The notes beneath the pieces were generated by a model. That model had not been told where the DNA came from and did no database searches. It saw nothing but the letters and a program-made list of their open reading frames with translations. Source: a candidate division FCPU426 bacterium (GTDB lineage: Bacteria; Oederibacteriota; PGYV01; Palsa-1178). From it: a DNA stretch of 64,000 nt. Of the stretch, positions 1,917-62,759 are shown one piece after another. Each line of letters starts with the position of its first letter. Position 1 is the stretch's first letter. Where the stretch lies: assembly GCA_963840035.1 (NCBI GenBank), contig CAWIXE010000002.1, positions 480,001-544,000 of the forward strand, read 5' to 3'. The position numbers were made by a program, and so were the translations under genes.

Positions 1917-2884
1917 TAGTGGTGACAGGAGCCGCCGGATTTATCGGAAGCGCCATAGTCAAGGAGCTGAATGTAAGGGGCAACGCGGACATTCACTGCG
2001 TAGACTGGCTGCGGGATGACAATAAGTGGAGGAACTTAAACGGCCTTAAATTTGACGATTATGAGGAAAAGGACGCGTTTTTAAAACGGGTCCTTTTTGA
2101 CGACCCGGTCTTAAGGGGTTCGGTTACCGGAGTGATACATATGGGGGCGTGCAGCTCAACTACGGAAAAAGACGCCTCTTTTCTCATGGAAAACAATTAT
2201 AAATACACCCAGGTGCTGGCAAAATGGTGCGTAAGAAACGGGAAAAAGTTTGTATACGCGTCGTCGGCAGCCACTTATGGCGACGGGGCTAACGGATTTG
2301 ATGACAGCCATGATTCAATTGAGTCCTTAAGGCCTCTTAACATGTACGGTTATTCAAAACAGCTCTTTGATGTCTGGGCAATGAAAAAATCCATGCTCGA
2401 CAAGATTGCCGGCGTAAAGTTCTTTAATGTCTTCGGCCCCAATGAATACCACAAAGACGACATGAGAAGCGTCGTGGTAAAGGCGTTTGAACAGATAAGG
2501 GACACTGGTAAAATGAAGCTTTTTAAGTCTTATAACAAGGAATACAGGGACGGGGAACAGATGAGGGATTTTATTTATGTTAAGGACGCAGTGAAAATGA
2601 CGCTGCACATATACGATTCCGGCCTTGCCGGGATTTACAATGTGGGCGGGGGAAAAGCGCGCACTTGGAACGATCTTGTAAAAGCTGTTTTCTCCGCGGC
2701 GGGTAAAAAGGAACACATTGAGTATACGGAGATGCCTGAATCAATACGTGATAAATACCAGTACTTTACACAGGCAAAGACGGAAAAGATCATGAAGACA
2801 TATAAGGAAAAAATGATGAGCCTTGAAGAGGGCGTCGCGGATTACGTTAAAAATTACCTGATTGACGGGGAAAGAACACTTTAA
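1913..2884 (+). CDS. hldD: ADP-L-glycero-D-manno-heptose 6-epimerase
   Basis: MIVVTGAAGFIGS, HMGACSSTTE, YASSAATYG, PLNMYGYSK, FFNVFGPNEYHK, YQYFTQA. Confidence 0.93.
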   Translation: MIVVTGAAGFIGSAIVKELNVRGNADIHCVDWLRDDNKWRNLNGLKFDDYEEKDAFLKRVLFDDPVLRGSVTGVIHMGACSSTTEKDASFLMENNYKYTQVLAKWCVRNGKKFVYASSAATYGDGANGFDDSHDSIESLRPLNMYGYSKQLFDVWAMKKSMLDKIAGVKFFNVFGPNEYHKDDMRSVVVKAFEQIRDTGKMKLFKSYNKEYRDGEQMRDFIYVKDAVKMTLHIYDSGLAGIYNVGGGKARTWNDLVKAVFSAAGKKEHIEYTEMPESIRDKYQYFTQAKTEKIMKTYKEKMMSLEEGVADYVKNYLIDGERTL

Positions 2885-2970
2885 CTCAAAACGCAAAAGT
2901 CAAAATTCAAAAGTAAAACAAAGGCTTAATTTCGCCCCGCTTTTGATTTTTGAGGTTTGATTTTTAAACT
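2883..2970. repeat. Heptamer-periodic inverted array
   Basis: Left arm aactcaa aacgcaa aagtcaa aattcaa aagtaaa (2883-2917); right arm ttgattt ttgaggt ttgattt ttaaact (2943-2970). Confidence 0.8.
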
Positions 2971-2985
2971 TTCACGGGAGGTTCT

Positions 2986-3300
2986 ATGAAAAAGTTTGTG
3001 GTGATACTGGTACTGATACTTGCAGGATGGTTTGTGTACACAAAGTTCGCGCCCAAGGAAACAAAGGAGAATAACGCGGTTATAAGTTACGCGGACAACC
3101 TGAAAACAAGCGAGGAAAAAGCCTCGGCAGCAAAAAACACCGCTGATGTCGCGGTGCTTCAGAACGCCGTTAACTCGTTTAAGGGAGCTGAAGGAAGGTA
3201 TCCGGCAACACTCCAGGAGCTTGTTGAAAAGAATTACATAGGCAGGGTGCCGTCCGGCGATTATAAGTATGACGCGCTCTCCGGAAGCGTATCGGAATGA
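2986..3300 (+). CDS. Small membrane-anchored protein with pseudopilin (GspG C-terminal)-like segment
   Basis: N-terminal TM helix; LQNAVNSFKGAEGRYPATLQELV resembles the GspG/pilin 'G.YP..L..L' region; RBS gggagg. Confidence 0.5.
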   Translation: MKKFVVILVLILAGWFVYTKFAPKETKENNAVISYADNLKTSEEKASAAKNTADVAVLQNAVNSFKGAEGRYPATLQELVEKNYIGRVPSGDYKYDALSGSVSE

Positions 3301-3329
3301 TTTCCAGGCGGTTGTGATAAGGGGGGAGA

Positions 3330-3836
3330 TTGAAACCAGAAAAGAGACCTGAAAATAGCGGCATAAATAAAGAGTTCATACCGGTCATATTCATACTGGC
3401 TACTCCTGCGCTGGCTTTCATGAACGGTTTCGGCGTAAGGACGGCTTCTTTTGGATTTGACCTGTATTACATACTGCCGGCTGTTTTTGGAGTGATAATG
3501 TGTTTTATTAACAGGATAAAACTTACCATGAAATATGAATTTGCCCTGTTGCTTGTGCTTGAAATAGTCATAAATATCCCTTACATGAAGGCGGATAATT
3601 ATTTTAACGGAAATTACATATATTTAATAATAACATATTCGCTCATCATCATGTTCCTGCTCATGATGGGCTTATCGTTCGCCGTAAATAATCCGTTTTA
3701 TATAAACTATTACATATCGGATAAAAAGCCCTATGTAATGATATACAGGCTGATAGCCGCTTTCTTTCTGGGAATACTGGCATATCACGTATATCTTTTT
3801 ACAAAGATCCTGGACATACTTAAAATCGCATTCTAA
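3330..3836 (+). CDS. Hypothetical integral membrane protein
   Basis: 168 aa, about 5 hydrophobic segments, TTG start after ggggag. Confidence 0.6.
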   Translation: MKPEKRPENSGINKEFIPVIFILATPALAFMNGFGVRTASFGFDLYYILPAVFGVIMCFINRIKLTMKYEFALLLVLEIVINIPYMKADNYFNGNYIYLIITYSLIIMFLLMMGLSFAVNNPFYINYYISDKKPYVMIYRLIAAFFLGILAYHVYLFTKILDILKIAF

Positions 3837-3870
3837 TTCCTATTATCTTAATTGCTTTTCCATATTTTTG

Positions 3871-3899
3871 TTTACAAAACACTGTTTCGGACTTATAAT
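3871..3899 (+). promoter_or_regulatory. Sigma70-type promoter of pta-ackA
   Basis: tttaca-17 nt-tataat. Confidence 0.6.
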
Positions 3900-3949
3900 G
3901 ATTTCAGTCAATTTTTAACAAAATCCCTTATATATGAAAGGAGTTTTTA

Positions 3950-4954
3950 ATGGCTTCATTCATGGAAACTGTTTATGAAAAAGCAAAAAAATCCCCAAAA
4001 AGAGTAGTGCTCCCCGAAGGAAATGACGAGAGGACGGTTGAAGCCGCTGTAAAAGCCACGCAATTAGGAGTGGCAAAAGTCGCCATGATAGGGGACCTTT
4101 CAAAAATGAAGGAAATCGCAAAAAATAAAGGGCTGTCGCTGGACGGCGTCGACCTCATAGACCTAAATAACCTTCCGGATATTGACGCGTACGCGAAAGA
4201 TTTTTTTGACATAAGGAAAGGCAAATGCGCCACCATGGAAGAAGCCATGGCAACAATGAAAAGGGATGTATATTACGGCGCCATGATGGTAAGAAAAGGC
4301 CTCGCCGACACGTTTGTAGCGGGAGCTGTAAATACCACGGCGGATGTGTCGCGCGCCGCAATATACCTCATAGGCATGAAACCCGGCATAAAAACCCTGT
4401 CCAGTTTTTTTGTGATGATTCTTCCGGACAAGTCATTTGGAAAAGACGGCATTCTTTTTTATTCTGACGGAGGCTTTGTCATAGACCCGAACGACGAACA
4501 GCTTGCTGACATAGCGGTCACGACGGGCGCCACATACAGGGAATTAATCGGTGAGGAACCTAACGTGGCCATGCTTTCATTCTCTACAAAAGGCAGCGCA
4601 AAACACGAGCGCATTGATAAGGTGACAAGGGCGCTCGCGCTGGCAAAAGCAAAAGACCCTTCATTGAACATAGACGGCGAGCTGCAGGGTGACGCTGCGC
4701 TCATACCGGCTGTCGGCGCGAAAAAAGCGCCAGGGTCGGCAGTTGCAGGAAAGGCGAATGTCCTTATATTCCCGGACCTTGATTCAGGGAATATCGCGTA
4801 TAAACTCACTGAAAGGCTTGCAAAGGCCGAAGCTTATGGCCCAATTTATCAGGGTACGGCAAAGCCGGTCAGCGACTTATCCCGCGGATGCAAAGCCTCG
4901 GATATCCTGAACGTCGCGGCGATAAATGTGGTAAGGCTGCAGAATAGCAAATAA
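3950..4954 (+). CDS. pta: Phosphate acetyltransferase
   Basis: VVLPEG, AMLSFSTKGS, DGELQGDAA, ANVLIFPDLDSGNIAYK, DLSRGC; adjacent to ackA. Confidence 0.95.
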   Translation: MASFMETVYEKAKKSPKRVVLPEGNDERTVEAAVKATQLGVAKVAMIGDLSKMKEIAKNKGLSLDGVDLIDLNNLPDIDAYAKDFFDIRKGKCATMEEAMATMKRDVYYGAMMVRKGLADTFVAGAVNTTADVSRAAIYLIGMKPGIKTLSSFFVMILPDKSFGKDGILFYSDGGFVIDPNDEQLADIAVTTGATYRELIGEEPNVAMLSFSTKGSAKHERIDKVTRALALAKAKDPSLNIDGELQGDAALIPAVGAKKAPGSAVAGKANVLIFPDLDSGNIAYKLTERLAKAEAYGPIYQGTAKPVSDLSRGCKASDILNVAAINVVRLQNSK

Positions 4955-5048
4955 GAAAGAGGTTAAGAGACAAGAGTTAGGAGACAGGAGTAATTCGTTT
5001 AGATTTCCTGCCTTACTTTTGTCTCCAGTCTCTTGTCTCTTAAACTCA
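4955..5048. repeat. Heptamer-periodic inverted array between pta and ackA
   Basis: ggttaag agacaag agttagg agacagg ... tttgtct ccagtct cttgtct cttaaac. Confidence 0.8.
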
Positions 5049-5085
5049 AAGGCATAAAATATACAACAACACAACGGAGGCTCTT

Positions 5086-6312
5086 ATGAAGGTAATGGTC
5101 ATTAATTGCGGAAGCTCTTCCCTGAAATTTAAGCTTTATGATATGGAGAAGACAAACACTGTAATAGCCGAGGGCGTTATTGAGGAAATCGGAAAGGACA
5201 AATCTAAGTTTAAGTATAAATCAAAGCACATGAAAAAAGATGAGGAAGCGGTCAGGGACGTGGAGGCAAAGGACCATACTCAGGCCGTGGACCAGGTAAC
5301 AAAGATCCTGCTGGACCCGAAAATAGGGGTTTTTAAGGATAAAATTGAAGTTGACGCGGTAGGGCACAGGGTAGTACATGGCGGTGAAAAATTCTCAAAG
5401 TCCGCGCTGATTACAAAGGGCGTCAAAGAGGTCATAAAGGACTGTTTTGAGATAGCTCCGCTCCATAATCCGCCGAATTTTTCCGGAATAGAAGCCTGTG
5501 AAGCAATCTTTCCCGGGATACCTCAGGTTGCCATATTTGACACCGCGTTCCATCAGACCATGAAAAAGGAAGCCTACATTTACGGGCTGCCTTATGAGCT
5601 TTATGAGCGTTATCATATCAGGAAATACGGCTTTCACGGGACTTCACATGAATATGTATCACAGAGGGCCGCGGATTTCCTGAAAAAGGACATAAAAAAA
5701 CTTAAAATAGTTACCTGCCACCTGGGAAACGGAGCGAGCATAACAGCCGTTAAAAACGGCCTCTCAGTAGATACCTCCATGGGTTTGACACCGCTTGAAG
5801 GGCTTGTAATGGGCACCCGGTGCGGGGACATGGACCCGGCTGTGGTAACGTTCCTGATGAAAAAAGAGCATTTAAGCGCGGATGACATAGACGGCCTGCT
5901 GAATAAAAAGAGCGGTCTAAAAGGAATATCGGGAGTTTCCAATGACCTGCGCGAGATAATGGAAGCGGCAGCCCACGGCAACGACAGGGCACAGTTCGCT
6001 ATCGATATTTTCTGCTACAGGATAACCAAGTATATCGGCTCATATGCGGCGGCAATGGGCGGGCTGGATGCGGTAGTGTTTACAGGCGGCATCGGAGAGA
6101 ACGCGGTAGATGTAAGGATGAAAGTTATGGAGCCGCTCGGATTTATGGGGATAAAACTGGATCCGGCAAAGAATAAGTCAAAAGAAAAGGAAAAGATAGT
6201 CTCGTCGGTGGGTTCAAGGGTAAAAGTGCTTGTTGTCCCGACGAACGAAGAGCTTATGATAGCTTTAAAGACAAAGTATGTCGTGAATGAGTCGGGTAAT
6301 ATTTACAGATAA
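5086..6312 (+). CDS. ackA: Acetate kinase
   Basis: VINCGSSSLK, GHRVVHGG, APLHNP, YGFHGTSH, HLGNGAS, VFTGGIGEN, PTNEEL. Confidence 0.96.
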   Translation: MKVMVINCGSSSLKFKLYDMEKTNTVIAEGVIEEIGKDKSKFKYKSKHMKKDEEAVRDVEAKDHTQAVDQVTKILLDPKIGVFKDKIEVDAVGHRVVHGGEKFSKSALITKGVKEVIKDCFEIAPLHNPPNFSGIEACEAIFPGIPQVAIFDTAFHQTMKKEAYIYGLPYELYERYHIRKYGFHGTSHEYVSQRAADFLKKDIKKLKIVTCHLGNGASITAVKNGLSVDTSMGLTPLEGLVMGTRCGDMDPAVVTFLMKKEHLSADDIDGLLNKKSGLKGISGVSNDLREIMEAAAHGNDRAQFAIDIFCYRITKYIGSYAAAMGGLDAVVFTGGIGENAVDVRMKVMEPLGFMGIKLDPAKNKSKEKEKIVSSVGSRVKVLVVPTNEELMIALKTKYVVNESGNIYR

Positions 6313-6316
6313 ATAC

Positions 6317-6403
6317 GTGGCGGGTGACGGGTGCTAAGTGATATGTGCCGGATACTGGTTTTTGGTTGTTCCACTTTGTACTCACCACTCGCCACTTACC
6401 ACT
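6317..6403. repeat. Heptamer-periodic inverted array between ackA and pfkB-family gene
   Basis: gtggcgg gtgacgg gtgctaa gtgatat gtgccgg ... ttccact ttgtact caccact cgccact taccact. Confidence 0.8.
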
Positions 6404-6419
6404 TTTATTGGACTTTGTC

Positions 6420-7307
6420 ATGCCAACTGTTATAACCCTCGGGGAGATCCTCGCTGATTTTGTGCCTGAAGGCAAAGGGCATGCGCTTAGGCCCGGCGGA
6501 GCTCCTTCAAATGTGGCTGTGAACCTGGCCAGGCTCGGCGTCAAATCAGGTATAATTTCAAAAATCGGAGTTGATCCTCTCGGCAGTTTTCTTAAAAAAT
6601 TCCTCAAAGCAAACAAGGTTGATACCTCAAATGTCTTTACGACAAAAAAAGCAAAAACAGGGCTTGTACTGGTATTTTTAGACGAAAAAGGTGAAAGCGG
6701 TTTTTCATTTTACGGCGATCCGGCCGCTGATAAATACCTCTCATCCGCTGAAATCAACCCGGAATACATTAGAACCTGTTCGGTATTCCACTTCGGGTCG
6801 ATAAGCATGATGCATCCGGTATCAGCCGCGGCTACCATGAAAGCCATACGCATTGCGCGGCGCATGGGAAAGCTTGTTTCTTATGACCCCAATGTAAGGC
6901 TTAACCTGTGGAAGGGCAGGCATGCGCAGGCCAGAAAAATGATGAGAAGTTTTTTTAAATACGCCGATATAATAAAAATCAACGAAAAAGAATTAAAATT
7001 TATTTTTGGCGTAAAACCGGACGCGAAAAAACTTAAACAAATTTTCAGCCCGGGGCAGCTTGTGTATATAAGCGCCGGGGCAAAAGGCTGTTATGTTTAC
7101 CATGACGGATTTTTCGCGGCTGTTAAAGGGTTTAAAGCCAGGGCAGTTGATACGACCGGCGCCGGGGACGCGTTTATGTCAGGGGTGCTTTACGGAATTA
7201 TAAAACGGTCATTAAAACTTTCATTTTCAAAAAAAGAAATGATTGGCATTGCTGTTTTTGCCAACAAAATGGGCAGCGCGGCCGTTAAGCATAAAGGGGC
7301 TGTTTAG
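6420..7307 (+). CDS. PfkB family carbohydrate kinase (fructokinase-like)
   Basis: GGAPSNVA, YDPNVR..LW, VDTTGAGDAF; start moved to ATG 6420 because the upstream extension is repeat DNA. Confidence 0.88.
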   Translation: MPTVITLGEILADFVPEGKGHALRPGGAPSNVAVNLARLGVKSGIISKIGVDPLGSFLKKFLKANKVDTSNVFTTKKAKTGLVLVFLDEKGESGFSFYGDPAADKYLSSAEINPEYIRTCSVFHFGSISMMHPVSAAATMKAIRIARRMGKLVSYDPNVRLNLWKGRHAQARKMMRSFFKYADIIKINEKELKFIFGVKPDAKKLKQIFSPGQLVYISAGAKGCYVYHDGFFAAVKGFKARAVDTTGAGDAFMSGVLYGIIKRSLKLSFSKKEMIGIAVFANKMGSAAVKHKGAV

Positions 7308-7336
7308 AGGCGTTTTAAAAGAAAATTCAGATAAAT

Positions 7337-14884: not shown

Positions 14885-14966
14885 AATTTAAAACTTGAAA
14901 TTGAAAACTGAAAGTGGGTTCGTTCTACGGTTCAACTTTTAGTTTTAAGTTTTCAGTTTCAAGTTA
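14885..14966. repeat. Heptamer-periodic inverted array
   Basis: atttaaa acttgaa attgaaa actgaaa ... ttcaact tttagtt ttaagtt ttcagtt tcaagtt. Confidence 0.8.
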
Positions 14967-15406: not shown

Positions 15407-15565
15407 GGCGTTCGGAGTTCGGAGGGTGGGGTTCGGAGTTAGGCGTTTGAAGTTCGGAAGTGGTGTCCGGAGTTTGTAGTTGTACGGTTCGAACTCCGAA
15501 CTCCGAACTCCGAACTCCGAACTCCGAACTCCGAACTCCGAACTCTACCCTCCACCCTTCGAACG
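15407..15565. repeat. Heptamer inverted array containing perfect (CGAACTC)8
   Basis: Left arm gttcgga gttcgga gggtggg gttcgga...; right arm 8 exact cgaactc units at 15490-15545, then taccctc caccctt cgaac. Confidence 0.92.
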
Positions 15566-15588
15566 CACTAAAACAATGGAGATGCTGA

Positions 15589-17157
15589 ATGACTGAAAAG
15601 AAACTTTTATCCGGGGACGAGGCCATAGCGCTTGGCGCTTATGAAGCCGGCATATACGCGGGATTTGGATATCCCGGAACGCCTTCAACGGAGATACTTG
15701 AGAATTTTTCCCGATATAAGGGAATATACGCGGAATGGTCCATAAATGAAAAGGTGGCCCTGGAAGCGGCGACAGGCGCTTCGCTCGGCGGCGTCCGGGC
15801 CATGTGCACGATGAAACACGTGGGATTGAACGTTGCCATGGACGCTTTTGTTACCCTGGCTTATACGGGAATAAACGGCGGGCTTGTAGTGGTTAACGCC
15901 GATGACCCGGGAATGCATTCATCACAGAACGAACAGGACAACAGGTACCTTGGCAAATTCGCTTACGTGCCGGTGGTTGAGCCTTCATCATCGCAGGAAG
16001 CAAGGGATTTTATGAAAGACGCCGTGGAAATAAGCGAGAAGTTCGATTTGCCGGTGCTCTTCAGGATAACCACAAGGATAGCCCATTCAAAAAGCGTCGT
16101 TTCATATGACCCGGCGTTTAAACCGGATTTTCCAAAGAAAAAAATGGACGTGCCATGGGACAAATACGTAATGATGCCGTTAAACGCGAAAAAACGGCGT
16201 GTTGTGCTTGTCGATAAATACGCGAAACTGAAGAAATTCGCTGAAGAAACAAAACTTAATAAAGCTGAGATGGCTGAAACGGATTTTGGTTTTATTACGT
16301 CGGGAGTGGCTTATGAGTATGTGAAGGAAGTTTTTCCCGGCAAATCAGTGTTTAAGCTTGGCCTGCTGAATCCATTGCCTTTAAACAAAATCAGGGAATT
16401 CTGCGCGAAGGTAGGTAAAGTATATGTTGTTGAAGAACTCGAACCGTATATCGAGGATTATCTGAAAGCCGAAGGAATAAAGGTTGAAGGCAAATCGGTT
16501 TTCCCGTTAATTGACGAACTTTCGCCGGACATAATAAGGGAATCTTTTAATAAAGCAAACGGTATTGCAATTGAAAATTCAAAATTCAAAATTGAAAATT
16601 CTGCAGTTCCTTCCCGTCCACCGTCTTTGTGCGCTGACTGCGGCCACCGCGGGGTGTTTAAGGTTATTAATGAACTGGGCCTGCTCGCCATGGGCGACAT
16701 AGGATGCTACACGCTGGGCGCGTTGCCTCCGTTTTCAGCGATGAACACATGCATAGACATGGGCGCGGGAATTAACCACGCGTACGGGGCCGAGCGCGCC
16801 GGCGAATCGCCTGAAAAGGTTGTGGCGGTGATAGGGGACTCAACATTCATGCACTCGGGCATTACCGGCATGGCAAACATGGTATATAACGGCGGCAATA
16901 CAATGACCATTATCCTGGATAACAGGACTACCGCCATGACAGGAAGGCAGCCGCATGCCGCGGCAGGGAAAACCCTGATGGGGAAAGAGGCATACAACAT
17001 AGACCTGGAGAAACTACTGGAAAGCCTCGGGGTTCAGCACGTGGCGGTCATTGACCCGTTTAAGATGAAGGAGCTAAAAGAACTAATTCAGGATTATCTG
17101 AAGAAAAAGGGTGTTAAAGTTATAATCGCAAGGCGCGAATGCGCGCTGTTAAAATAG
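15589..17157 (+). CDS. iorA: Indolepyruvate:ferredoxin oxidoreductase alpha subunit (no C-terminal ferredoxin domain)
   Basis: GYPGTPSTE, MKHVGLNVA, SSQNEQD, RPPSLCADCGH, GDIGCYTL, IGDSTFMHSG, LDNRTTAMTG. Confidence 0.92.
   Translation: MTEKKLLSGDEAIALGAYEAGIYAGFGYPGTPSTEILENFSRYKGIYAEWSINEKVALEAATGASLGGVRAMCTMKHVGLNVAMDAFVTLAYTGINGGLVVVNADDPGMHSSQNEQDNRYLGKFAYVPVVEPSSSQEARDFMKDAVEISEKFDLPVLFRITTRIAHSKSVVSYDPAFKPDFPKKKMDVPWDKYVMMPLNAKKRRVVLVDKYAKLKKFAEETKLNKAEMAETDFGFITSGVAYEYVKEVFPGKSVFKLGLLNPLPLNKIREFCAKVGKVYVVEELEPYIEDYLKAEGIKVEGKSVFPLIDELSPDIIRESFNKANGIAIENSKFKIENSAVPSRPPSLCADCGHRGVFKVINELGLLAMGDIGCYTLGALPPFSAMNTCIDMGAGINHAYGAERAGESPEKVVAVIGDSTFMHSGITGMANMVYNGGNTMTIILDNRTTAMTGRQPHAAAGKTLMGKEAYNIDLEKLLESLGVQHVAVIDPFKMKELKELIQDYLKKKGVKVIIARRECALLK
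16569..16601. repeat. In-frame heptamer run inside iorA
   Basis: aattgaa aattcaa aattcaa aattgaa aattc, encoding IENSKFKIENS. Confidence 0.75.
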
Positions 17158-17186
17158 CGGGTAGTGAGTGGCGGGCAGTGGGTAGC
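17155..17186. repeat. Single heptamer arm at iorA stop
   Basis: tagcggg tagtgag tggcggg cagtggg tagc. Confidence 0.65.
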
Positions 17187-18340: not shown

Positions 18341-18448
18341 AGTCACAAGTCCCAAATTACAAATCCCAAAGAAGAAACGGCAAGTTCTCCTTTGGGATCT
18401 GTGATTTGGGATTTGTGATTGTAGTTATGATTTGGGACTTGTGATTGG
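18341..18448. repeat. Heptamer-periodic inverted array
   Basis: agtcaca agtccca aattaca aatccca ... tttggga tctgtga tttggga tttgtga ... tttggga cttgtga. Confidence 0.85.
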
Positions 18449-19162: not shown

Positions 19163-19170
19163 AGGACCTT

Positions 19171-19313
19171 GTAGGGGCGAGCCGGTGGCTCGCCCGGAAT
19201 TAGATTGGACTTGAATCTGTTGGGGATTGCTTTGATGGTCAGGCAAGTGAGTCACCAGGCTTTAGACCCTAATTCTAAATCAAAGGCCGGGCGAGTCACC
19301 GACTCGCCCCTAC
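19171..19313. repeat. Inverted pair of GTAG-REP elements (REPIN-like)
   Basis: gtaggggcgagccggtggctcgccc (19171-19195) and gggcgagtcaccgactcgcccctac (19289-19313). Confidence 0.8.
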
Positions 19314-19340
19314 GAAGACAAACAACAAAAAATTGCATTC

Positions 19341-19372
19341 CACTTAGCACCCGCCACCCGTCACGCGCCACT
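19341..19372. repeat. Single heptamer arm upstream of murJ
   Basis: cttagca cccgcca cccgtca cgcgcca; reverse complement of units at 6318 and 17169. Confidence 0.7.
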
Positions 19373-19407
19373 TGTAAATATACCCTAATTGTATTATAAT
19401 CCTACCC

Positions 19408-24401: not shown

Positions 24402-24926
24402 ATTTCATTTACAGAATTGAGAGTTAACAGCCAGATCAGGGTAAGCGAAGTAAGGGTAATTGATGAAGCAGGAAATTCGCTTGGCGTCATGACGGTTAAC
24501 GATGCGATCAAGAAGGCGGAAGAACGGGCGGTGGATTTAGTCGAGATCAGCCCGGCTGCGAAGCCTCCGGTCTGCAAGCTTTTGAATTACGGCAAGTACC
24601 GCTACGAACAGATAAAAAAGGATAAGGAAGCAAGGAAGAACCAGCACGTGGTAGTCGTAAAAGAGATCCAGATCAGGCCGAATATCGACAAGCATGACCT
24701 GGGGATTAAGCTCAACCACGCGACAGAATTCCTCGAAAAAGGCTTTAAGGTAAAGTTCGTAATACGGTTCAGAGGCAGGGAACTGGAGTATAAGGAAATA
24801 CGCGGCGCCGAGATGCTTGATACTGTATATAAACATACCGCGGGTGTGGGCCAGCTTGAAGGCGACCCGTTCAAGGAAGAACGTTCGATCATATTTGTGA
24901 TGATGCCGATAAAGAAACAAGTTTAA
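24402..24926 (+). CDS. infC: Translation initiation factor IF-3 (ATT start)
   Basis: RVNSQIR, DLVEISP..KPPVCK, KEIQIRP, FRGRE; GGAGG at 24389-93 with in-frame ATT at 24402. Confidence 0.95.
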   Translation: MSFTELRVNSQIRVSEVRVIDEAGNSLGVMTVNDAIKKAEERAVDLVEISPAAKPPVCKLLNYGKYRYEQIKKDKEARKNQHVVVVKEIQIRPNIDKHDLGIKLNHATEFLEKGFKVKFVIRFRGRELEYKEIRGAEMLDTVYKHTAGVGQLEGDPFKEERSIIFVMMPIKKQV

Positions 24927-24985
24927 AGTTTTAAGTTTAGAGTTTAAAGTTAAAAGCATAACGCTTAAGACTTAAACCGTAAAAT
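24920..24985. repeat. Heptamer-periodic inverted array between infC and rpmI
   Basis: agtttaa agtttta agtttag agtttaa agttaaa ... taacgct taagact taaaccg taaaat. Confidence 0.75.
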
Positions 24986-35519: not shown

Positions 35520-35532
35520 AGAAGTACTGCCT

Positions 35533-36650: not shown

Positions 36651-36671
36651 TAACTCGATTCAGAAAAGCAA

Positions 36672-36796: not shown

Positions 36797-36850
36797 TGCC
36801 TCCAACTGCCTCGTAAGCTTTAGCTTCGCCTGCCTATACGGAGGCAATAC

Positions 36851-37402: not shown

Positions 37403-37403
37403 G

Positions 37404-39598: not shown

Positions 39599-39631
39599 GT
39601 AGGTGGTAAGTGATATGTGGTATGTGGTAAG
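39596..39631. repeat. Left heptamer arm flanking four-helix-bundle gene
   Basis: taagtag gtggtaa gtgatat gtggtat gtggtaa, starting at the pyrC stop. Confidence 0.8.
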
Positions 39632-39684
39632 GGAAAACTAAAAATATGACAGGACGTTTGGGCTTGAAAAATGGGGGGGCGCAA

Positions 39685-40059
39685 ATGAATGTTGTTAAGA
39701 GTTTTGAGGACCTTGAAGTGTGGAAAAAAGCAATAGATATATCTGATCTTACACATGCAATTGTAGATGATTTTCCAAAGCAGGCGATATGGACGCTGGG
39801 TACGCAGATGTTAAGGTCTTCTGTTTCTATAGGATCAAACATTGCAGAAGGATGCGAGCGCCAGCATACGCCGGAATACATACAATTTTGTTATATTGCC
39901 CTGGGATCATGTGCGGAACTATATACACAACTTATAATTGCAAAAAGAAGAAAGTATCTGCCTGAGGAAAAATATGATCAGATATCAGAAATGATCCAGC
40001 ATGAACGAAGAATGTTGCTGAATTTAACAAAAAGCCTGAAATTAAGAAGAAAACAGTAA
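39685..40059 (+). CDS. Four helix bundle protein (23S rRNA IVP/Avd-like family)
   Basis: SFEDLEVWKKA, FP, L..QMLRSSVSIGSNIAEG, F..IALGSCAELYTQL. Confidence 0.92.
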   Translation: MNVVKSFEDLEVWKKAIDISDLTHAIVDDFPKQAIWTLGTQMLRSSVSIGSNIAEGCERQHTPEYIQFCYIALGSCAELYTQLIIAKRRKYLPEEKYDQISEMIQHERRMLLNLTKSLKLRRKQ

Positions 40060-40079
40060 CGTAATAAAAGGTATGGCTG

Positions 40080-40107
40080 CTGGCACGTAGCACGTACCAC
40101 TTATCAC
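40080..40107. repeat. Right heptamer arm flanking four-helix-bundle gene
   Basis: ctggcac gtagcac gtaccac ttatcac, reverse-complementary in pattern to the left arm. Confidence 0.75.
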
Positions 40108-40142
40108 GTTCTTGTTTGAAACTAAGGAAACAAGGAGAACAT

Positions 40143-44690: not shown

Positions 44691-45467
44691 ATGAAGTACA
44701 CAGGCAAAGTAACAAAAAACACAGAGATTGCTGAAAACATATGGAAAATGGAAATTTCCACAGGCAAGGTTTTTAAATCCAAACCGGGGCAGTTTATAAA
44801 CATCCTGGTCAATGATACCTATGAACCGCTTCTCAGGCGCCCGTTCTCGATTTACGACGCCACAAATAAGTCTGTTACGGTCGTGTATAAGGTCATAGGA
44901 CAGGGAACAAAAGCGATGACGGAAAAGAAACCTGGCAACAAACTCGATTTTATCGGACCGTTGGGTAACTCGTACCTGGACTTTAAATCACAAATCTCAA
45001 ATCCCAAATCCCAAATTGTAATTATCGGCGGCGGCACAGGCGCTGCTTCTACGTACTACCTCGCCAAATACCTCAAATCAAAGAAAATTAAATTCAAATT
45101 CATCCAGGGAGCACGCTGCAAATCTCAGATGGTAGCTGTCCCTGAATTTAAAAAAATCGGGTGTGTCTTTGCCACTGATGACGGTACTCTGGGGAAAAAG
45201 GGCTTTGTCAGCGATATTTTAAAAGATACACTTGAAGATGATTCAACAATATTCACGTGCGGGCCCAAGCCCATGTTTAAGGCAATAAAGACTGTAGCTG
45301 ACTCTAAAAACCGGGTAAAAGTATTCGCTTCGTTTGAGGAATATATGGGGTGTGGTATTGGCGCATGTGTGTCGTGCGTGGTGGAGATAAAAATGGGCGA
45401 TACGAATGAGTACAAGCGCGTCTGTAAAGACGGCACTATTTTTGACCTGAATGATGTGGCTTTTTAA
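44691..45467 (+). CDS. pyrK: Dihydroorotate dehydrogenase electron transfer subunit
   Basis: PGQF, LRRPFS, GPLGN, TCGPKPM, MGCGIGACVSC..RVCKDG. Confidence 0.92.
   Translation: MKYTGKVTKNTEIAENIWKMEISTGKVFKSKPGQFINILVNDTYEPLLRRPFSIYDATNKSVTVVYKVIGQGTKAMTEKKPGNKLDFIGPLGNSYLDFKSQISNPKSQIVIIGGGTGAASTYYLAKYLKSKKIKFKFIQGARCKSQMVAVPEFKKIGCVFATDDGTLGKKGFVSDILKDTLEDDSTIFTCGPKPMFKAIKTVADSKNRVKVFASFEEYMGCGIGACVSCVVEIKMGDTNEYKRVCKDGTIFDLNDVAF
44985..45017. repeat. In-frame heptamer run inside pyrK
   Basis: aaatcac aaatctc aaatccc aaatccc aaatt, encoding KSQISNPKSQI. Confidence 0.75.
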
Positions 45468-49288: not shown

Positions 49289-49867
49289 TTAGATTGCCGC
49301 TTCTTGTGTGAATACCATGCTGTTAATGGCTGTTGAAACGAATTCCCGGTCGTAGTCGCGCAGCTCGGGGTGGAAGTATTTTTCCCATCTTTTAACCCTG
49401 GTAGGGGATATGACGTTGGAATAAACCAGGAACTTCGGTTCGTGCGGCTCTTTCATAAGGCGCATACCGGCTTCTTTAAGCGGCCTGTCGCCCTTTTTGT
49501 TATTACAGGAATGGCAGGCGGTGACAACATTGAACCAGTTTGTCTTGCCGCCCTTTGACTTTGGTATGATATGGTCTATGGTCGGTTTGGGGGTGTGTTT
49601 GCCGCAATACTGGCAGTGGAAATTATCCCTTATGAAGACTGCTTTTTTAGAAAATTTGGGGGCTATGTAGGGTTTTCTTACATAGTAGGCTATTTGTATG
49701 ACAGATGGGAGCCTTACCTTTGCCCGTACAGTGGAGATAAAGGAAATGCCTTCCTCGACAGAATGGGCTTTTTTGGAAAATAGCAGTTTAAGGGCGCGGC
49801 GAGGGTTGACCACCGTCAAAGGCTCAAATGTGGTGTTCAGAAGCAGTACGCTTTGATCTGACTCCAT
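49289..49867 (-). CDS. HNH endonuclease family protein
   Basis: VLLLNTTFEPL, RDNFHCQYCG, TIDHIIPKSKGG, NVVTACHSCNNKKG. Confidence 0.92.
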   Translation of the reverse strand: MESDQSVLLLNTTFEPLTVVNPRRALKLLFSKKAHSVEEGISFISTVRAKVRLPSVIQIAYYVRKPYIAPKFSKKAVFIRDNFHCQYCGKHTPKPTIDHIIPKSKGGKTNWFNVVTACHSCNNKKGDRPLKEAGMRLMKEPHEPKFLVYSNVISPTRVKRWEKYFHPELRDYDREFVSTAINSMVFTQEAAI

Positions 49868-54827: not shown

Positions 54828-55274
54828 ATGGAAGGACAGCTAAGCGTAGTTGAAATTCAAAAGTTAATACCACACAGGTTCCCGTTCCTGTTAGTCGACA
54901 GGGTGCTTGAGATAAAAGACGGGGAATCCATAACGGCGATTAAGAATGTCACGATGAATGAATGGTTCTTTCAGGGCCATTTCCCCGGTGCCCCGGTCAT
55001 GCCGGGCGTGCTCATTGTGGAAGCCATGGCGCAGACAGGCGGGATACTCATGGCTAAAAAACTCTCAAACGCCGAGGCGCCCAAGGTGGTATATTTCATG
55101 ACGATCAACAATGTAAAATTCAGGCAGCCGGTTACGCCGGGCGATACATTGAAATTTGTAGTCACCATGACCAAACTGAAAGGCACGATAGGGACTCTGC
55201 ACGGGGAAACTTTCGTCGGCGAGAAGAAAGTGGCCGAAGCCGATATGATGGCCATGATAGCGGACGCACAGTAA
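54828..55274 (+). CDS. fabZ: 3-hydroxyacyl-ACP dehydratase
   Basis: PHRFPFLLVDR, FQGHFP..PVMPGVLIVEAMAQ. Confidence 0.96.
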   Translation: MEGQLSVVEIQKLIPHRFPFLLVDRVLEIKDGESITAIKNVTMNEWFFQGHFPGAPVMPGVLIVEAMAQTGGILMAKKLSNAEAPKVVYFMTINNVKFRQPVTPGDTLKFVVTMTKLKGTIGTLHGETFVGEKKVAEADMMAMIADAQ

Positions 55275-55338
55275 GTTCGAAGTTCGGAGGGTAGGGTTCG
55301 AAGTTTGAACTTCGAACCCCGAACTTCACCCTTCGAAC
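55274..55338. repeat. Heptamer-periodic inverted array between fabZ and lpxA
   Basis: agttcga agttcgg agggtag ggttcga agtttga / acttcga accccga acttcac ccttcga. Confidence 0.85.
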
Positions 55339-55355: not shown

Positions 55356-56126
55356 ATGAGCATCCACCCTACAGCCATAGTTTCACCAAAGGCAAAGCTC
55401 GGCGCTGATGTTACAGTTGGGGCTTTTGCCATTATAGATGATGATGTAATAATCGGAGACAAATGCGTCATAGGGCCGCGCGCGCACATAGAGTTTACTG
55501 AAATGGGCGCTAATAATTTTATCGGCGAAGGATCCATGATAGGGGCTGCGCCCCAGGACCTGAAATATAAAAATGAGCGTTCGTTTGTAAAAATAGGCAG
55601 CAATAATGTTTTCAGGGAATATGTTTCCATACACAGGGCCACGCATGAAGGCGAGTCTACGGTAATAGGCGACTCCAATTTTTTTCTTACTATGGCGCAT
55701 GTCGCGCACGACTGCAAGGTCGGAAACAGGGTGGTTCTTATTAACAATGTGGGTATGTCAGGGCATGTGACTGTTCATGACGGCGCGGTGATTTCCGGTT
55801 ATACCCTAATACACCAGCATGCCAGGATCGGCAGCTACGTCATGGCGGGTGGCGGCACTAAAATAGTCAAAGATGTGCCCCCTTTTATGATGATAGACGG
55901 AAACCCGGCGGCAATACACGGGCTTAACAAGCTGGGGCTGAAAAGGAATGGGTTCTCGCCTGAGCGCATAAAAATAATTGAGGACATGTACGCCATATTC
56001 ATAAGGGATAAGAACCTTCTTTTTGCGGAAGCGGTAAAAAAGATAGAGGATACAATACCAAAGAATGATGATGTTAATTATTTTATTGATTTTATAAAGA
56101 ACTCCAAAAGGGGCATTGAAAGGTGA
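55356..56126 (+). CDS. lpxA: Acyl-ACP--UDP-GlcNAc O-acyltransferase
   Basis: IHPTAIV, PQDLKY, FREYVSIHR, HVAHDC, KDVPPF, GLNKLGLKR. Confidence 0.95.
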   Translation: MSIHPTAIVSPKAKLGADVTVGAFAIIDDDVIIGDKCVIGPRAHIEFTEMGANNFIGEGSMIGAAPQDLKYKNERSFVKIGSNNVFREYVSIHRATHEGESTVIGDSNFFLTMAHVAHDCKVGNRVVLINNVGMSGHVTVHDGAVISGYTLIHQHARIGSYVMAGGGTKIVKDVPPFMMIDGNPAAIHGLNKLGLKRNGFSPERIKIIEDMYAIFIRDKNLLFAEAVKKIEDTIPKNDDVNYFIDFIKNSKRGIER

Positions 56127-56933
56127 AATATAAGAAAATCGCTTTAATAGCCGGCGGCGGCGACCTTCCGCTTATTTTTTTGCGCAACGCGCAGAAAGCC
56201 GGGCAGGAAGTCCTTGTCCTTGAGATTCAGGGGGAAGGCAACCCCGGCATCACACGCTATCCTTTTAAAAAAGTCAGGATAAACATAACACACCTGGAAG
56301 AGATAATTAACACTACAAAACAGGAAAAGATAAAACACATCATGTTCCTGGGTTATGTGCGGCCGCAGCGCCTTTTGAAGGACATTATTTTCGACGAGAA
56401 GGACCAGGACAACCTTCTTAAACCTCATGGATAAGAGGCCGAAGGCGCTCATGGAATCAGCCATTAATGAATTTAAAAAAGACGGGATAGAAGCCATACC
56501 TTCCACTTACCTCATGGATGAAGTGCTGGCAGGCCCGGGTTTTTTGACGCGGATTAAACCGGACTTAAAAGAGCTCAAGGCGGGCATAGACATTACGCGC
56601 GCTCTGGCGGGGCTTGACGTTGGCCAGACCACTGTGGTGTGTTCAGGCATGATATGGGCGGCGGAAGCCATGGAAGGCACGGATAACTGCATTAAGCGCG
56701 GCGGCAGGCTCGCGAAAAAGGGTTTTACCGTCATTAAAATGGCAAGGCCAAAGCAGGATTTGAGGTATGACGTTCCTGCGGTGGGGCTTAAGACGCTCAA
56801 ACTTATAAAATCACTCGGCGGCCGCGGGATAGTAGTGGAAGCAGGGAAGACTTTTTTACTTAACAAAGATGAGCTTTTAAGGTATGCTGATACCCATAAT
56901 TTATTCATATACGGCTGGAGGAAAAGCAAATGA
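56123..56933 (+). pseudogene. lpxI: UDP-2,3-diacylglucosamine pyrophosphatase LpxI, split by one extra base near 56399
   Basis: IAGGGDLP in first part; DVGQT, EAMEGTD..IKR, KQDLRYDVPAVG in second; deleting one A at 56399-56400 gives FDERTRTTFLNLMDKRP. Confidence 0.8.
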
Positions 56934-58048
56934 TACCCATATCAAAACCGAACCTGGATGAGAAAGAAAAAGAAGCGGTACAGGCAGTACTTAATTCCGG
57001 GATAATAGCGTCAGGCCCGAAGGTGAAAGAATTTGAAGCGGCATTTGCCGCCTATACTTTTTCCGACTATACCGGGGCAAAACACGCGATTGCGGTTTCA
57101 AACGGCACCTGTTCACTGCATACCTGCCTTGTAATGAATGGCATTGGCAAAGGCGACAGGGTAATAACCTCGCCATTTACATTTATAGCGACTGGAAACT
57201 CCATCATTCACGCCGGGGCTGAACCGGTATTTGCGGATATTTGTGAAGGTTCTTTCAATATAGACCCGGACAGGATTGAAGCAATGTTGAAAAAGGATTT
57301 TTTTAAAAAAATAAAAGCGATCATGGTAGTTCATATTTACGGCCAGGTTTGCGAGATGGACCGTATAATGGCAATCGCGAAGAAATATGGCGTTAAGGTA
57401 ATAGAGGACGCGGCGCAGGCGCATGGCGCGAAATTCAAGGGACAAAACGCCGGCACATTTGCGGACGGCGGTTCGTTTTCCATGTACGCCACAAAGAATA
57501 TTACGACCGCAGAAGGCGGCGTGGTTACGACTAATGACGATAAAGCCGCGGAGATCGCGCGCAGTTTCATAAACCACGGATCGGAAAAAATATATTACCA
57601 CACAAGGCTCGGTTACAATTACAGAATGACAGATATCGAAGCGGCCATCGGGATTGTGCAGTTGGCCAAGCTAGACGGTTTTAACATTAAACGCAGGAAG
57701 AACGCCGAAATTCTTAAAAAGCACCTTTCAAAATTTGATTTCATAACTGCCCCGCCGGAAGGCAAGGATAATTTCCATATTTACCATCAGTTTACCATAA
57801 GGGTTAAAGGCGGAAAAAGGGACGCGCTTTTAAAGCACCTTTCTGACAGCGGCGTGGGGGCTAAAGTGTTCTACCCGATACCGCTGCATAAACAACCGTA
57901 TTACCTGAATGATGTTCTTAAAAAGAACATTACACTGCCTGTATCTGAAGAAGCGGCAGCTCAGGTAATAAGCCTGCCGGTGCATCCGGGCTTAACGGAT
58001 GCGGAAATGACAACAATTAAAGGCGCTTTTGACAGCTTTAAGATCTAA
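56930..58048 (+). CDS. DegT/DnrJ/EryC1/StrS PLP-dependent sugar aminotransferase
   Basis: SNGT, FTFIAT, EDAAQAHG, FSMYATKNITTAEGG, GYNYRM, SLPVHP. Confidence 0.9.
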   Translation: MIPISKPNLDEKEKEAVQAVLNSGIIASGPKVKEFEAAFAAYTFSDYTGAKHAIAVSNGTCSLHTCLVMNGIGKGDRVITSPFTFIATGNSIIHAGAEPVFADICEGSFNIDPDRIEAMLKKDFFKKIKAIMVVHIYGQVCEMDRIMAIAKKYGVKVIEDAAQAHGAKFKGQNAGTFADGGSFSMYATKNITTAEGGVVTTNDDKAAEIARSFINHGSEKIYYHTRLGYNYRMTDIEAAIGIVQLAKLDGFNIKRRKNAEILKKHLSKFDFITAPPEGKDNFHIYHQFTIRVKGGKRDALLKHLSDSGVGAKVFYPIPLHKQPYYLNDVLKKNITLPVSEEAAAQVISLPVHPGLTDAEMTTIKGAFDSFKI

Positions 58049-58077
58049 TCACTGATTACAAATGGCTGATTACTAAT
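58046..58077. repeat. Single heptamer arm before smc
   Basis: taatcac tgattac aaatggc tgattac taat, starting at the stop codon. Confidence 0.6.
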
Positions 58078-58098
58078 AAAAAACATAGGAGTTTTTAA

Positions 58099-61000: not shown

Positions 61001-61830
61001 ATTCCGTAGAGATACCCGAGGAAGAGTATAAGGAACTGACGCTGAAGGTGACCGAGTATAAGGAAAAGATAGACAAACTCGGCGTTATTAACCTGGTGGC
61101 CATAGAGGAATACAATGACCTTAAATCAAGGAACGAACATTTACAGACGCAGTATGACGACCTGAATACTGCCAGGGATAATCTGAAAAAGATCATTAAA
61201 AAGGCCAATGAAGAATCGAAAGAACTCTTCAATAAGGCTTTTGACGCCATAAAAATACAGTTTGCCGATGTGTTCAAGAAGATGTTTAACGGCGGAGAAG
61301 CGGACCTTGTGCTTTCAGACAAGGATAACATGCTTGAATCCGGCATAGACATCATAGCCAGGCCGCCCGGAAAAAAACTCCAGAACATATCGCTTTTATC
61401 CGGCGGAGAAAAAGCCATCACGGCCATATCACTGCTTTTCGCGCTGTTTTTGACAAAGGCCAGCCCGTTCTGCGTTATGGACGAGATAGACGCGCCGTTA
61501 GATGATATCAATGTCACAAGGTTTACAAACCTGGTAAAAAGTTTCAAAAGGACTCAGTTCATTATCATATCCCATAACAAGCTGACTATGGAAATCGGCG
61601 ACGTATTATACGGGGTATCCATGGAAAAAGCGGGCGTATCCCAGATAATATCCATTAAACTCGACAGGGACAAGGAAAAACTGGCAAAATCCCTGGCAAG
61701 CGACGGCAAGTCGGCGGCTTTAAAGGAAAGCGAAGAAAAGGCAAAAGCAAAAAAAGAAATAGAAGATGCTGAAGCGGAAGAAAACGCCAAAGCCGCGCTG
61801 GAAGGAGAGCCAGGGGATGGAGAAAAATAG
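58099..61830 (+). CDS. smc: Chromosome segregation protein SMC
   Basis: GFKSF, GPNGSGKSN, long coiled coils, hinge, LSGGEK, VMDEIDAPLD; TTG start. Confidence 0.95.
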   Translation: MKLKELHLFGFKSFADKTSLEFGHDITIVVGPNGSGKSNVFDAIRWVLGEQSAKQLRGGKMEDVIFIGSDSRKTLGMAEVTIVMDNTDKTINLPYTDVKVTRRLYRSGESEYSINDQQVRLKDIVEIFMDTGVGLDSYSIISQGEVDRIINAKPVERREIFEEAAGITKYIKKRDEALRKLEATEQNMLRINDILVEVKRQAAVLERQAKKAEQYKALKMECSDMEIRMHKKDVKEYKIKHNNLEAQRLEIDKKIEAEEAGLSSFEKSFEDMKLKGTDMERMIAEKREKWVIKQEEIKRLEDSLKYLSERHTELLSRIESLKNENVENVGKIESVKVDIEGKNRSIAEKETVVKDREAQLENLNKRYESFTVDFEGAKKARDEKQDKAGLLNNELNGLKGRIVELDLNIKNMDEQLVKIAAEKKDAEDKLHRTDIELESISENRGLKEEEIKGIKDREEELLKEKIKRKTSFVTTEETLKDLGFVIGKLESRQNFLKQMHQRMEGYGEIVRKVLTEYKLQLDDDAKGSLVDVVANLIAVEKPYERAVESTLAGLLQTVFVRNEKMIEEIFSLYEHEKGEISFINSQNMKVNPAAVMARWKEMVKHKNITAYLPEQVQVEDGNEAIKLLFHNIFVVESLEKAREVLNDVRRDEQYYLLTQNGELISNFSIYTKGEGLAGEGLLSREREIEEIASEIGTARGKYASVEDEKNFQSIKIASLEKEIENLSITYHAQYVEVIKDDERIKQKNEDRERHMASIVRIEEQAVAIASERTGFTTGREALSLEEKRMLDSIEESRLGIEASKLDIQAKEDNLNQEKALIDDKKVEILTLKNEYDMDINNKSMLESRLKEVEENYRNTGLEIEGLNEKVRMSEDESKANDAKINELKTTLILDEQSLETSKKEHEEFRVQLNTLEDDIKKMSKTRDKLKDEQYDIKVNLSEIAIQIKNIYEKMNEDFKIAPSDEDVYSVEIPEEEYKELTLKVTEYKEKIDKLGVINLVAIEEYNDLKSRNEHLQTQYDDLNTARDNLKKIIKKANEESKELFNKAFDAIKIQFADVFKKMFNGGEADLVLSDKDNMLESGIDIIARPPGKKLQNISLLSGGEKAITAISLLFALFLTKASPFCVMDEIDAPLDDINVTRFTNLVKSFKRTQFIIISHNKLTMEIGDVLYGVSMEKAGVSQIISIKLDRDKEKLAKSLASDGKSAALKESEEKAKAKKEIEDAEAEENAKAALEGEPGDGEK

Positions 61831-62683
61831 TTTCGCAAAACCCCGTTCTTTCCTCGATAAACTGAAAAATATATTTTCAAAAGGCCCGGCAAAAGAACAC
61901 CTCGACGACCTCGAAGAAATCCTCATATCCGCTGACATTGACCTTGTAATCGTTGATGAAATCATGGAAGCCTTAAAGGCGGAAAAAGTATCAACGTATG
62001 AAGACGCAAGGAAATTCCTTAAGGATGAATTCATAAGCAAACTGAAGCCAAATACCCCGGATGAAAAGCGCAGGAGAAAAGTAATCCTTTTAGTCGGCAT
62101 TAACGGGGCCGGCAAGACCACTACCGCGGCAAAACTGGCAAACCTTTATAAGAAACAGGGGAAAAAAGTGATTTTCGCCGCCGCGGACACATTCCGGGCC
62201 GCGGCCATAGAGCAGCTTGAAGCGTGGGCTCTAAAGGCGGGCATCGAAATCATAAAGGGCAAGGACGGCGGGGACCCGGCTGCAGTGGCCTTTGACGCCG
62301 CGCAAAAAGCCGTTAAGGAAAAAGCCGACGTTCTGATAATAGATACCGCGGGCAGGCTCCATACAAAGTCAAACCTCATGCAGGAGCTGGCCAAGGTAAA
62401 AAAAGTTGTCTTAAGGGAGATCCCTGAAGAGGAAGTGGATACCCTGATCATAATAGACACGAATACCGGAAAGAACGCCTTTGTCCAGGCAAAAGAATTT
62501 CATGACTCGCTGAAATTAACGGGGGTAATACTTACGAAGTTCGACTCGTCCGCCAGGGGCGGCTCCATAATAAAGATAAAACACGAACTGAACCTGCCGA
62601 TAAAGTATATGACATACGGCGAGAGCATGGAAGACATAGCGGAGTTTGATGAGAAGGAATTTGTGGAAGGGATTTTTGAATAG
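61817..62683 (+). CDS. ftsY: SRP receptor FtsY (short NG-only form)
   Basis: GINGAGKTTT, DTFRAAA, DTAGRL, TKFD..ARGG. Confidence 0.95.
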   Translation: MEKNSFAKPRSFLDKLKNIFSKGPAKEHLDDLEEILISADIDLVIVDEIMEALKAEKVSTYEDARKFLKDEFISKLKPNTPDEKRRRKVILLVGINGAGKTTTAAKLANLYKKQGKKVIFAAADTFRAAAIEQLEAWALKAGIEIIKGKDGGDPAAVAFDAAQKAVKEKADVLIIDTAGRLHTKSNLMQELAKVKKVVLREIPEEEVDTLIIIDTNTGKNAFVQAKEFHDSLKLTGVILTKFDSSARGGSIIKIKHELNLPIKYMTYGESMEDIAEFDEKEFVEGIFE

Positions 62684-62684
62684 C

Positions 62685-62759
62685 AACTGAAAACTTGAAG
62701 CTGAAAAGTGAAAGTTGTGACAGAACCAGCTTTCAGTTTTCAATTTTAAATTTTAAGCT
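62685..62759. repeat. Heptamer-periodic inverted array between ftsY and recJ
   Basis: aactgaa aacttga agctgaa aagtgaa ... gctttca gttttca attttaa attttaa gct. Confidence 0.8.

Follow-up and report, generated by a model that had tools for sequence, protein, structure and literature searches.

Tandem repeats with a 7-base unit have been described at gene junctions of several bacteria. Here we report arrays with a period of 7 bp, often laid out as two inverted arms, in a 64,000-nucleotide stretch from a candidate division FCPU426 bacterium (the window; contig CAWIXE010000002.1, positions 480,001 to 544,000), and in the genome to which it belongs (G000, with contigs C1–C3; its relatives are labelled G001–G030, and loci holding four-helix genes carry L-numbers). 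We tentatively favour, at slightly less than an even chance, the reading that these arrays are the non-autonomous ends of a four-helix-bundle cassette, with one core per subunit of a predicted pentamer, pasted by host enzymes.

In Xanthomonas and Nostoc, 7-base tandem units of the coding strand follow stop codons by no more than 50 bp, and those of the opposite strand precede starts; Xanthomonas carries 70–75 convergent heptamer pairs per genome, and the word 'helix' is absent from the main text (Rehm et al., 2015; PMC4692102). The present arrays resemble those repeats in being intergenic 7-base tandems with a coding-strand copy near the stop codon and an inverted partner downstream. However, the repeats of Rehm et al. 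consist, in each genome, of a single G-rich unit that was interpreted as a quadruplex, whereas here there are about 26 families with a shared register and a ceiling of five cores. The TAACTGA repeats of Beggiatoaceae form intergenic sets of 2–6 copies with a fixed orientation to genes, a layout also seen here, and protein binding was proposed for them (MacGregor, 2015; PMC4679880). They differ in having a single unit, mostly located just before starts; one set is inverted, the binders proposed are S1, Csp and Csr, and the text contains neither 'intervening' nor 'IVP'.

The 23S rRNA intervening sequence with S23p contains two to three tandem GACAGAT heptamers in a stem before the open reading frame (ORF) (Warrier et al., 2016; PMC4990558). 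In that sequence, as at 39599–40109 of the window, a PF05635 gene lies between inverted repeats; the other pairs of the window are empty of any ORF. In contrast, the intervening sequence sits in rRNA helix 45 and is excised by RNase III, whereas the present arms lie between protein genes (here pyrC and carA) and gene-less arms outnumber genes by about 90:1. Avd of the diversity-generating retroelements (DGRs) is a pentameric four-helix barrel related to S23, and its five protomers all touch one RNA element (bioRxiv 10.1101/2023.10.23.563531); it binds a stem-loop rather than tandem cores, and our search of G000 gave no reverse transcriptase. TRAP of Bacillus subtilis offers a functional analogy only, its ring having as many subunits as there are short RNA repeats, while the fold is unrelated, the repeats are 11 triplets, the regulatory sites are few and the system is not mobile (PMC4027176).

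Single-unit repeats with their geometry (PMC4692102, PMC4679880) and the gene-in-stem design for rRNA (PMC4990558) are thus already in print, and our literature searches returned no publication linking gene-junction heptamer arrays to a TIGR02436/PF05635 protein. New here are in-frame arms inside genes at unchanged protein length, and three families in one iorA linker register. The cited papers leave two puzzles, the excess of 7-base repeats between genes and the role of the S23p four-helix protein; G000 ties both together at scale.

Arrays and their placement in the window and the genome

Gene calling with a simple codon-model script, run genome-wide, gave 2,818 genes and missed some small ones, the four-helix gene and rpmI among them. 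Periodic arrays were scanned genome-wide at a score threshold of 11, and three dinucleotide shuffles were used as nulls. In the 551 kb between genes, 547 period-7 arrays were detected, compared with 1, 4 and 2 in the shuffles, and 33 and 3 arrays at the control periods 6 and 8; coding DNA (2.9 Mb) held 29 period-7 arrays. An excess of period 7 over 6 and 8 between genes, whose absence would have refuted an earlier note made from the letters of the window alone, is thus present. That note had also treated the period as fixed at 7, which is not so, as families with periods 6/7, 8 and 9 occur in G000 with an identical inverted layout. Its nine arm pairs and five single arms were all located, the right arm at 24920 being weak; it had missed the gene-filled pair at 39599–40109 and the in-frame arms at 16569 and 44985. 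The detector overlooks degenerate left arms at 5/9 window pairs, so the pair counts below are lower bounds and the lone-arm counts are inflated. The features of the window are as follows.

2883–2972 (+), arm pair at the junction of a heptose-epimerase gene and a small ORF; left arm about 2883–2918, right arm about 2940–2972
4957–5047 (+), arm pair with an AGACAAG-type unit between pta and ackA; pairs of other families in G002 and G006, none in five relatives
6317–6403 (+), arm pair with a GTG-core unit between ackA and a sugar kinase gene; an AAGTTTT pair is found here in G006
14885–14966 (+), arm pair of the AAACTGA family, from a paaK-like gene to an ACT-domain gene
15410–15566 (+), arm pair of the GAGTTCG family, from the ACT gene to iorA; right arm grown to 8 perfect copies
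16569–16600 (−), five-core in-frame arm in iorA; G002 and G006 have another unit at the same position, register and linker length
17155–17185 (+), lone left arm beginning in the iorA stop codon
17620–17648 (+), left arm beginning in a stop codon; partner weak at most
18341–18445 (+), arm pair of the AATCCCA family, 71 nt past the stop codon and behind another hairpin
19341–19373 (−), right-type arm upstream of murJ
24919–24980 (+), left arm overlapping the infC stop codon, with a weak right arm
35489–35519 (+), lone left arm of the TAATTAC family, preceding GTAG-headed palindromes
39599–39629 (+), left arm of the gene-filled cassette, beginning at the pyrC stop codon
39697–40059 (+), four-helix-bundle gene (TIGR02436, PF05635) between pyrC and carA
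40083–40109 (−), right arm of the gene-filled cassette, downstream of the four-helix gene
44985–45015 (+), in-frame arm in a dihydroorotate dehydrogenase electron-transfer gene; linker 2–5 aa longer than in 6 relatives
55273–55338 (+), arm pair of the GAGTTCG family between fabZ and lpxA; same family in G002; in G006 a left arm alone, from a different family
58046–58079 (+), lone left arm beginning in a stop codon, ahead of smc
62685–62759 (+), arm pair after ftsY; missing in 4/4 relatives compared

An array lies directly past the stop codon in 409 of the 2,818 genes, about one in seven, with no bias between leading and lagging strand (367/2502 vs 42/316, p = 0.55). Arrays occupied 254/917 and 181/663 of the co-directional junctions of at least 40 bp, 38/123 of the convergent and 33/149 of the divergent ones. 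These similar frequencies indicate that the tie to co-directional genes noticed in the window comes from its gene layout only. Two arrays were present in 182 of 1,353 co-directional junctions of 40–400 bp, and 157 of these junctions held arms that could be paired, with a median loop of 26 nt.

When the 36 pairs that had 60 bp or more to spare were examined, the left arm lay within 12 nt of the stop codon in 31 and the right arm within 25 nt of the start in none, showing that the arms are anchored to the stop codon and not to the ribosome-binding site. Positions are therefore not random relative to stop codons. Left arms do begin at or near stops, as first supposed from the window, where 8/9 lie within 12 nt and that at 18341 is 71 nt away, whereas the companion idea that right arms end just before the ribosome-binding site did not hold. 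In junctions of at least 150 bp, 92/116 left arms lay within 12 nt of the stop, compared with 13/77 repetitive extragenic palindromic (REP)-like elements. Arms were found at the stop in 40/48 cases in convergent junctions and in 0/38 in divergent ones. Half of the lone right arms (16/32) lie within 23 nt of a start. The GTAG-headed REP-like elements are separate from the arms and stand downstream of the arm in 17/19 shared junctions; identity of the arms with REP or bacterial interspersed mosaic elements (BIMEs) was rejected, the arms being without a GTAG-type head on a short palindrome. In the window, such GTAG-headed palindromes, distinct from the heptamer arms, occur at 35530–35715, 35885–35950 and 19170–19325.

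The arms are not ordinary terminators, in agreement with the earlier note, since a U-tract follows only 17/157 right arms and an arm stands ahead of the terminator in 20/22 junctions holding both, the median terminator distance being shifted from 22 to 43 nt; terminators are neither enriched nor depleted in arm junctions (p = 0.8). This order is what would be expected if the arms belonged to a host regulatory network, in which a TRAP-like ring would coat 35 nt of mRNA past the stop codon against Rho or nucleases, or insulate neighbouring genes, with selection and gene conversion maintaining the arrays. The sense-strand polarity at stops, the excess of lone left over lone right arms (102 vs 32), the scarcity of arms behind genes of low third-position GC content (6/179, against 272/1499 for genes of high content), the presence of Rho and RNase III genes in G000, and the precedent of one repeat per TRAP subunit (PMC4027176) point the same way. 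However, close relatives are armless at the same junctions, families change freely, and in-frame arms occur in both polarities, and we consider this explanation unlikely.

Arm grammar, orthologous junctions and in-frame arms

The 157 pairs fall into 26 families, 12 of them with at least four members, and the units are mostly A/T-rich. The 85 distinct left-arm units have a shared purine-purine-pyrimidine register (score 1.83, vs 1.37–1.49 in 10 column permutations). Family consensus arms start and finish on this core, and arm ends are phased to it (chi-square p 1e-18 and 7e-10). Array length peaks at 4–5 units, with more than 5.5 units in only 30/948 arrays. In the largest family, 210/285 arms have exactly five cores and 5 have six; five is the modal count in 6/11 usable families, family 3 being excluded because the scan matched the reverse complement of family 0.

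Identical whole-arm pairs were more frequent in the largest family than expected from unit shuffling (86 vs 15), an excess absent in families 1, 2, 4, 8 and 11. The loops are mostly unique, a second genomic match being found for 19/118, and one loop is present at 4 loci in both orientations. About ten pairs, counted by eye, mix two families. Arrays of relatives shared a 14-mer with G000 arms in 21/75 cases, compared with 5.5 expected. In one related family, arrays of period 8 are frequent and flank four-helix genes too. The statement that sequence is not conserved therefore needs correction, as units form multi-locus families that are also common to other genera, although constancy of period and geometry under a changing unit does hold, most clearly at the iorA linker described below. 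An AATCCCA-family arm has seemingly grown to about 95 units in the region of G000 C2:1613150 (location inferred), and BIME-like tandem piles made of about 50–100-bp units of period-6/7 arm pairs occur at G000 C2:243859–244550, C1:882541–883000 and C3:96034–96340.

Comparison with orthologous sites showed that arm-bearing junctions are longer than their arm-free counterparts in 62/70 comparisons (median 114 vs 40 bp), indicating that intergenic arms are gains. Relatives are mostly armless at orthologous junctions, and G003, G004 and G005 have 0 arrays in 120, 57 and 78 kb. Where both genomes are armed at one junction, the family differs in 9/11 comparisons, after removal of 3 in which the array of the relative lay at another junction. 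Co-occupancy of orthologous junctions in array-rich relatives (11/43 vs 5/83, p = 0.004, again with 3 comparisons set aside because the array was at another junction) is confounded by junctions unable to hold an insert and was not taken as evidence.

Inside called ORFs, 35 arrays were found, in both polarities and some at doubtful N-termini. Ten in-gene sites were compared with relatives, and 5/10 keep the length of some or all of them, three are net insertions, and at the remaining two the loops are too variable to judge.

Length kept: ispG/GcpE, 5/5
Length kept: metallo-beta-lactamase-fold gene, 5/5
Length kept: class I tRNA ligase, 3/5
Length kept: trmD, 2/4
Length kept: iorA, 3/7 same-family genomes
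Net insertion: Mur ligase, +14 aa
Net insertion: laccase-like gene, at least +18 aa
Net insertion: gene at 44985, +2 to +5 aa

At iorA 16569, G000, G002 and G006 have five-core arms at the same base, register and polarity but from three different families; G004 is equally long and has no array, and a further four same-family genomes fall short by 6 aa. Because single 7-base slips would frameshift these genes, the simplest reading is one-step pasting with loss of target, or arm-by-arm conversion, with gradual substitution as the alternative. The in-frame arms imply that parts of conserved enzymes are rewritten by this process. For annotation, there is a risk that arms yield false N-terminal extensions and spurious ORFs.

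The four-helix-bundle gene and the proposed mechanism

G000 contains 8 TIGR02436 genes, of which at least 4, including that at 39697–40059, are enclosed by inverted arms. The cassette between pyrC and carA is missing at that junction in 7/7 same-family genomes; its arms pair in the predicted fold, with a whole-cassette z of only −1.2. Beyond G000, 80 metagenome loci were fetched; 66 of them were distinct and had full flanks, and 57 of these had a period-7 array within 170 bp, compared with 3/111 distant control windows; arrays lay on both sides in 33 of the 57, inverted in 28. In 29 relatives, array density and gene copies per Mb were correlated (rho 0.60, p = 6e-4; rho 0.16 for control periods), bearing out the correlation with four-helix-bundle gene counts suggested earlier; 34–126 kb was sampled per relative, and G021 (less than 25 kb) was dropped. 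In relatives with at most one gene, 13 arrays were counted over 855 kb, and in relatives with at least 5 genes, 53 over 761 kb.

The closest solved homologue of the protein encoded at 39697–40059 is 2gsc, which has five chains (E 3e-16; TM 0.88 for the model) and which PMC4990558 describes as a homopentamer. The fold match to Avd is weak (4dwl, TM 0.78, E 0.04, sequence identity about 11%). PF22296 appears in the precomputed annotation and was not reached at E 1e-8. A search for four-helix leader motifs was too unspecific and was not used. GxxExxY is another repeat-flanked gene, and its family was not found in G000.

A four-helix gene behind a tRNA occupies the same place in four genomes (G000 C2:73000–73720; L011, L013, L015). 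An empty arm pair lies upstream of it, with a unit that differs between G000/G006 and G002, and a loop motif recurs with yet another unit in L012. A 111-aa gene at G000 C2:1647932–1648267 is flanked by CCCTCTCC palindromes and sits at a junction where G001 has a four-helix cassette (L002), so that one site serves different small cargoes.

That filled and empty forms have arm families in common, and that the pyrC–carA cassette is a lineage-specific gain, would also fit decay, each empty pair being the remnant of a separate gene-bearing cassette after loss of its ORF. However, permissive tblastn with 28 four-helix proteins gave no gene fragment below E 0.07 outside the 8 genes, and about 700 arrays stand against these 8 genes. 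In addition, the length-neutral in-frame arms of ispG and trmD would need exact deletion of a 500-bp insert, and G000 is without arms at the L003, L004 and L005/L019 junctions, which are occupied in relatives and whose flanks are conserved in G000. Decay is accordingly a rather improbable account.

For the reading that we favour, the arrays as pasted ends of a four-helix cassette, the arm grammar, the five-core ceiling, the stop anchor, lineage-specific gain, family change at fixed sites, in-frame coding patches and co-occurrence with the four-helix gene are directly supported. Mechanistically, the predicted pentameric ring would hold an arm in the form of single-stranded nucleic acid, and repair enzymes of the host would paste arm copies of about 30 bases, or whole pairs, with target bases lost and no duplication made. 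The stretch just past the stop codon may be the favoured or the best-tolerated target; inside genes, the survivors would be frame-keeping events only, and an existing arm could be overwritten by another family via the shared core register.

A further reading, which we regard as doubtful, is that a putative Avd-like pentamer captures five-core strands and that host enzymes then overwrite about 30 bases, the system having no nuclease or reverse transcriptase of its own. Its targets would lie behind stop codons and even in frame in essential genes, with families swapped in place. DGRs, too, overwrite a target region. If true, it would bring bacterial heptamer repeats, the intervening sequences with S23p and a supply of new peptide segments for proteins under one cause.

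Several observations weigh against the pasted-cassette reading. Concerning the protein, we know of no catalytic activity of the four-helix family, no catalytic partner was found, and G000, which is 98% complete, gave no match to a reverse transcriptase (PF00078). Concerning the gene link, G014 and G030 reach 15 and 5 arrays per 100 kb with a single gene each; in G027, which has one array, no gene was matched; and G023, with 5 genes, lacks period-7 arrays at score 11 and has period 8 in their place. The relatives in the density correlation are kin and not independent, most of the 26 arm families are without a cognate gene in G000, and several of the 8 TIGR02436 genes have an arm on one side or none. 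Concerning the grammar, the modal core count is 3–4 in the other five usable families, arms of 10–20 units occur in some relatives, and the register matrix distinguishes arm orientation poorly and scores foreign arms only modestly above the null (1.38 vs 1.08 ± 0.13, maximum null 1.46). Finally, the relatives at overwritten sites belong to different genera and give no ancestral sequence there.

Hairpin folding, transposon traits and other observations

Folding energies were compared with shuffled sequence, as the earlier note had suggested, and the predicted RNA folds of 8/9 window pairs (all but 15407) gave z = −1.9 to −7.9 against 200 shuffles. Genome-wide, arm mismatches showed no G-U excess (G-U 122 vs A-C 108, p = 0.39), whereas control hairpins did (133 vs 96, p = 0.017), as did terminator-like ones (44 vs 22, p = 0.009). 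The folding energy of whole pairs was lower on the sense strand in 98 cases and on the antisense strand in 54, but the duplex energy of the arms alone was equal on the two strands (p = 0.19). Of 238 left-arm variants, 175 were unmirrored and 55 mirrored, compared with 28 expected, a count biased upward because the register was chosen to maximise pairing. Among testable lone left arms, 102/148 had no detectable partner. Taken together, the missing G-U excess, the equal duplexes and the partnerless left arms do not support structural selection on an RNA hairpin, one of the two causes first offered for the conserved geometry.

These data bear on another explanation, that slippage makes the 7-base repeats, template switching mirrors them, and the hairpins are selected as terminators or RNase III sites. 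The good folding of pairs, the mirrored variants, the sense-strand advantage of whole pairs and long perfect expansions such as that at 15490 agree with it, as does the over-representation of heptamer repeats in many bacteria (PMC4692102). Yet the sense advantage disappears for arms alone and the G-U excess present in controls is lacking. The five-core ceiling, the phased ends, the families common to loci and genera, the frameshifts that 7-base slips would cause in ispG or trmD, and the identical layout at periods 8 and 9 also speak against slippage, which we judge improbable.

Terminal inverted repeats, a trait of MITEs (miniature inverted-repeat transposable elements), are present: the arrays are inverted in 169/182 two-array junctions, with 86% Watson-Crick pairing. 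Two other traits, a conserved interior and a target-site duplication, are lacking. Loops rarely recur, as given above, and the mean longest flank repeat was 2.96, compared with 3.14 in shuffles, so that no duplication was detected, although the ends are fuzzy by 1–2 nt and a 2-bp duplication is possible. The view that the arrays are not one MITE is therefore supported. If an ordinary transposase, for example a resident one that we take to be IS30-like, mobilised numerous small MITE families, this would account for terminal arrays that converge in 153/157 pairs, for one whole element at 4 loci and for IS30-like elements inside arms. Against this stand the missing target duplication, the unique loops, the many lone arms, and the IS30-like copies, the transposase elements examined, which interrupt arms and carry their own termini; we find this explanation very improbable. 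All 3 copies of one IS30-like element lie within left arms of the TAATTAC family (C2:827230–828450, C3:54900–56095, C3:228230–229415), and 2/4 copies of a second lie in GATTCT-family arms (G000 C2:388070–389225, C2:169476).

Rfam gave no match within the window, and a search for sequencing runs covering 1913–7300 came back empty, which says nothing either way about expression. The pyrR operon leader (36660–36850) has terminator-like hairpins and is probably a PyrR attenuator, with no Rfam match at gathering score. Two genes of the window, pyrB (37383–38337) and an lpxI-like gene (56123–56933), are each split into two overlapping ORFs, by frameshift or assembly error. A stand-alone HNH protein of 192 aa is encoded at 49289–49867 (−) and partially matches the HNH domain of IscB.

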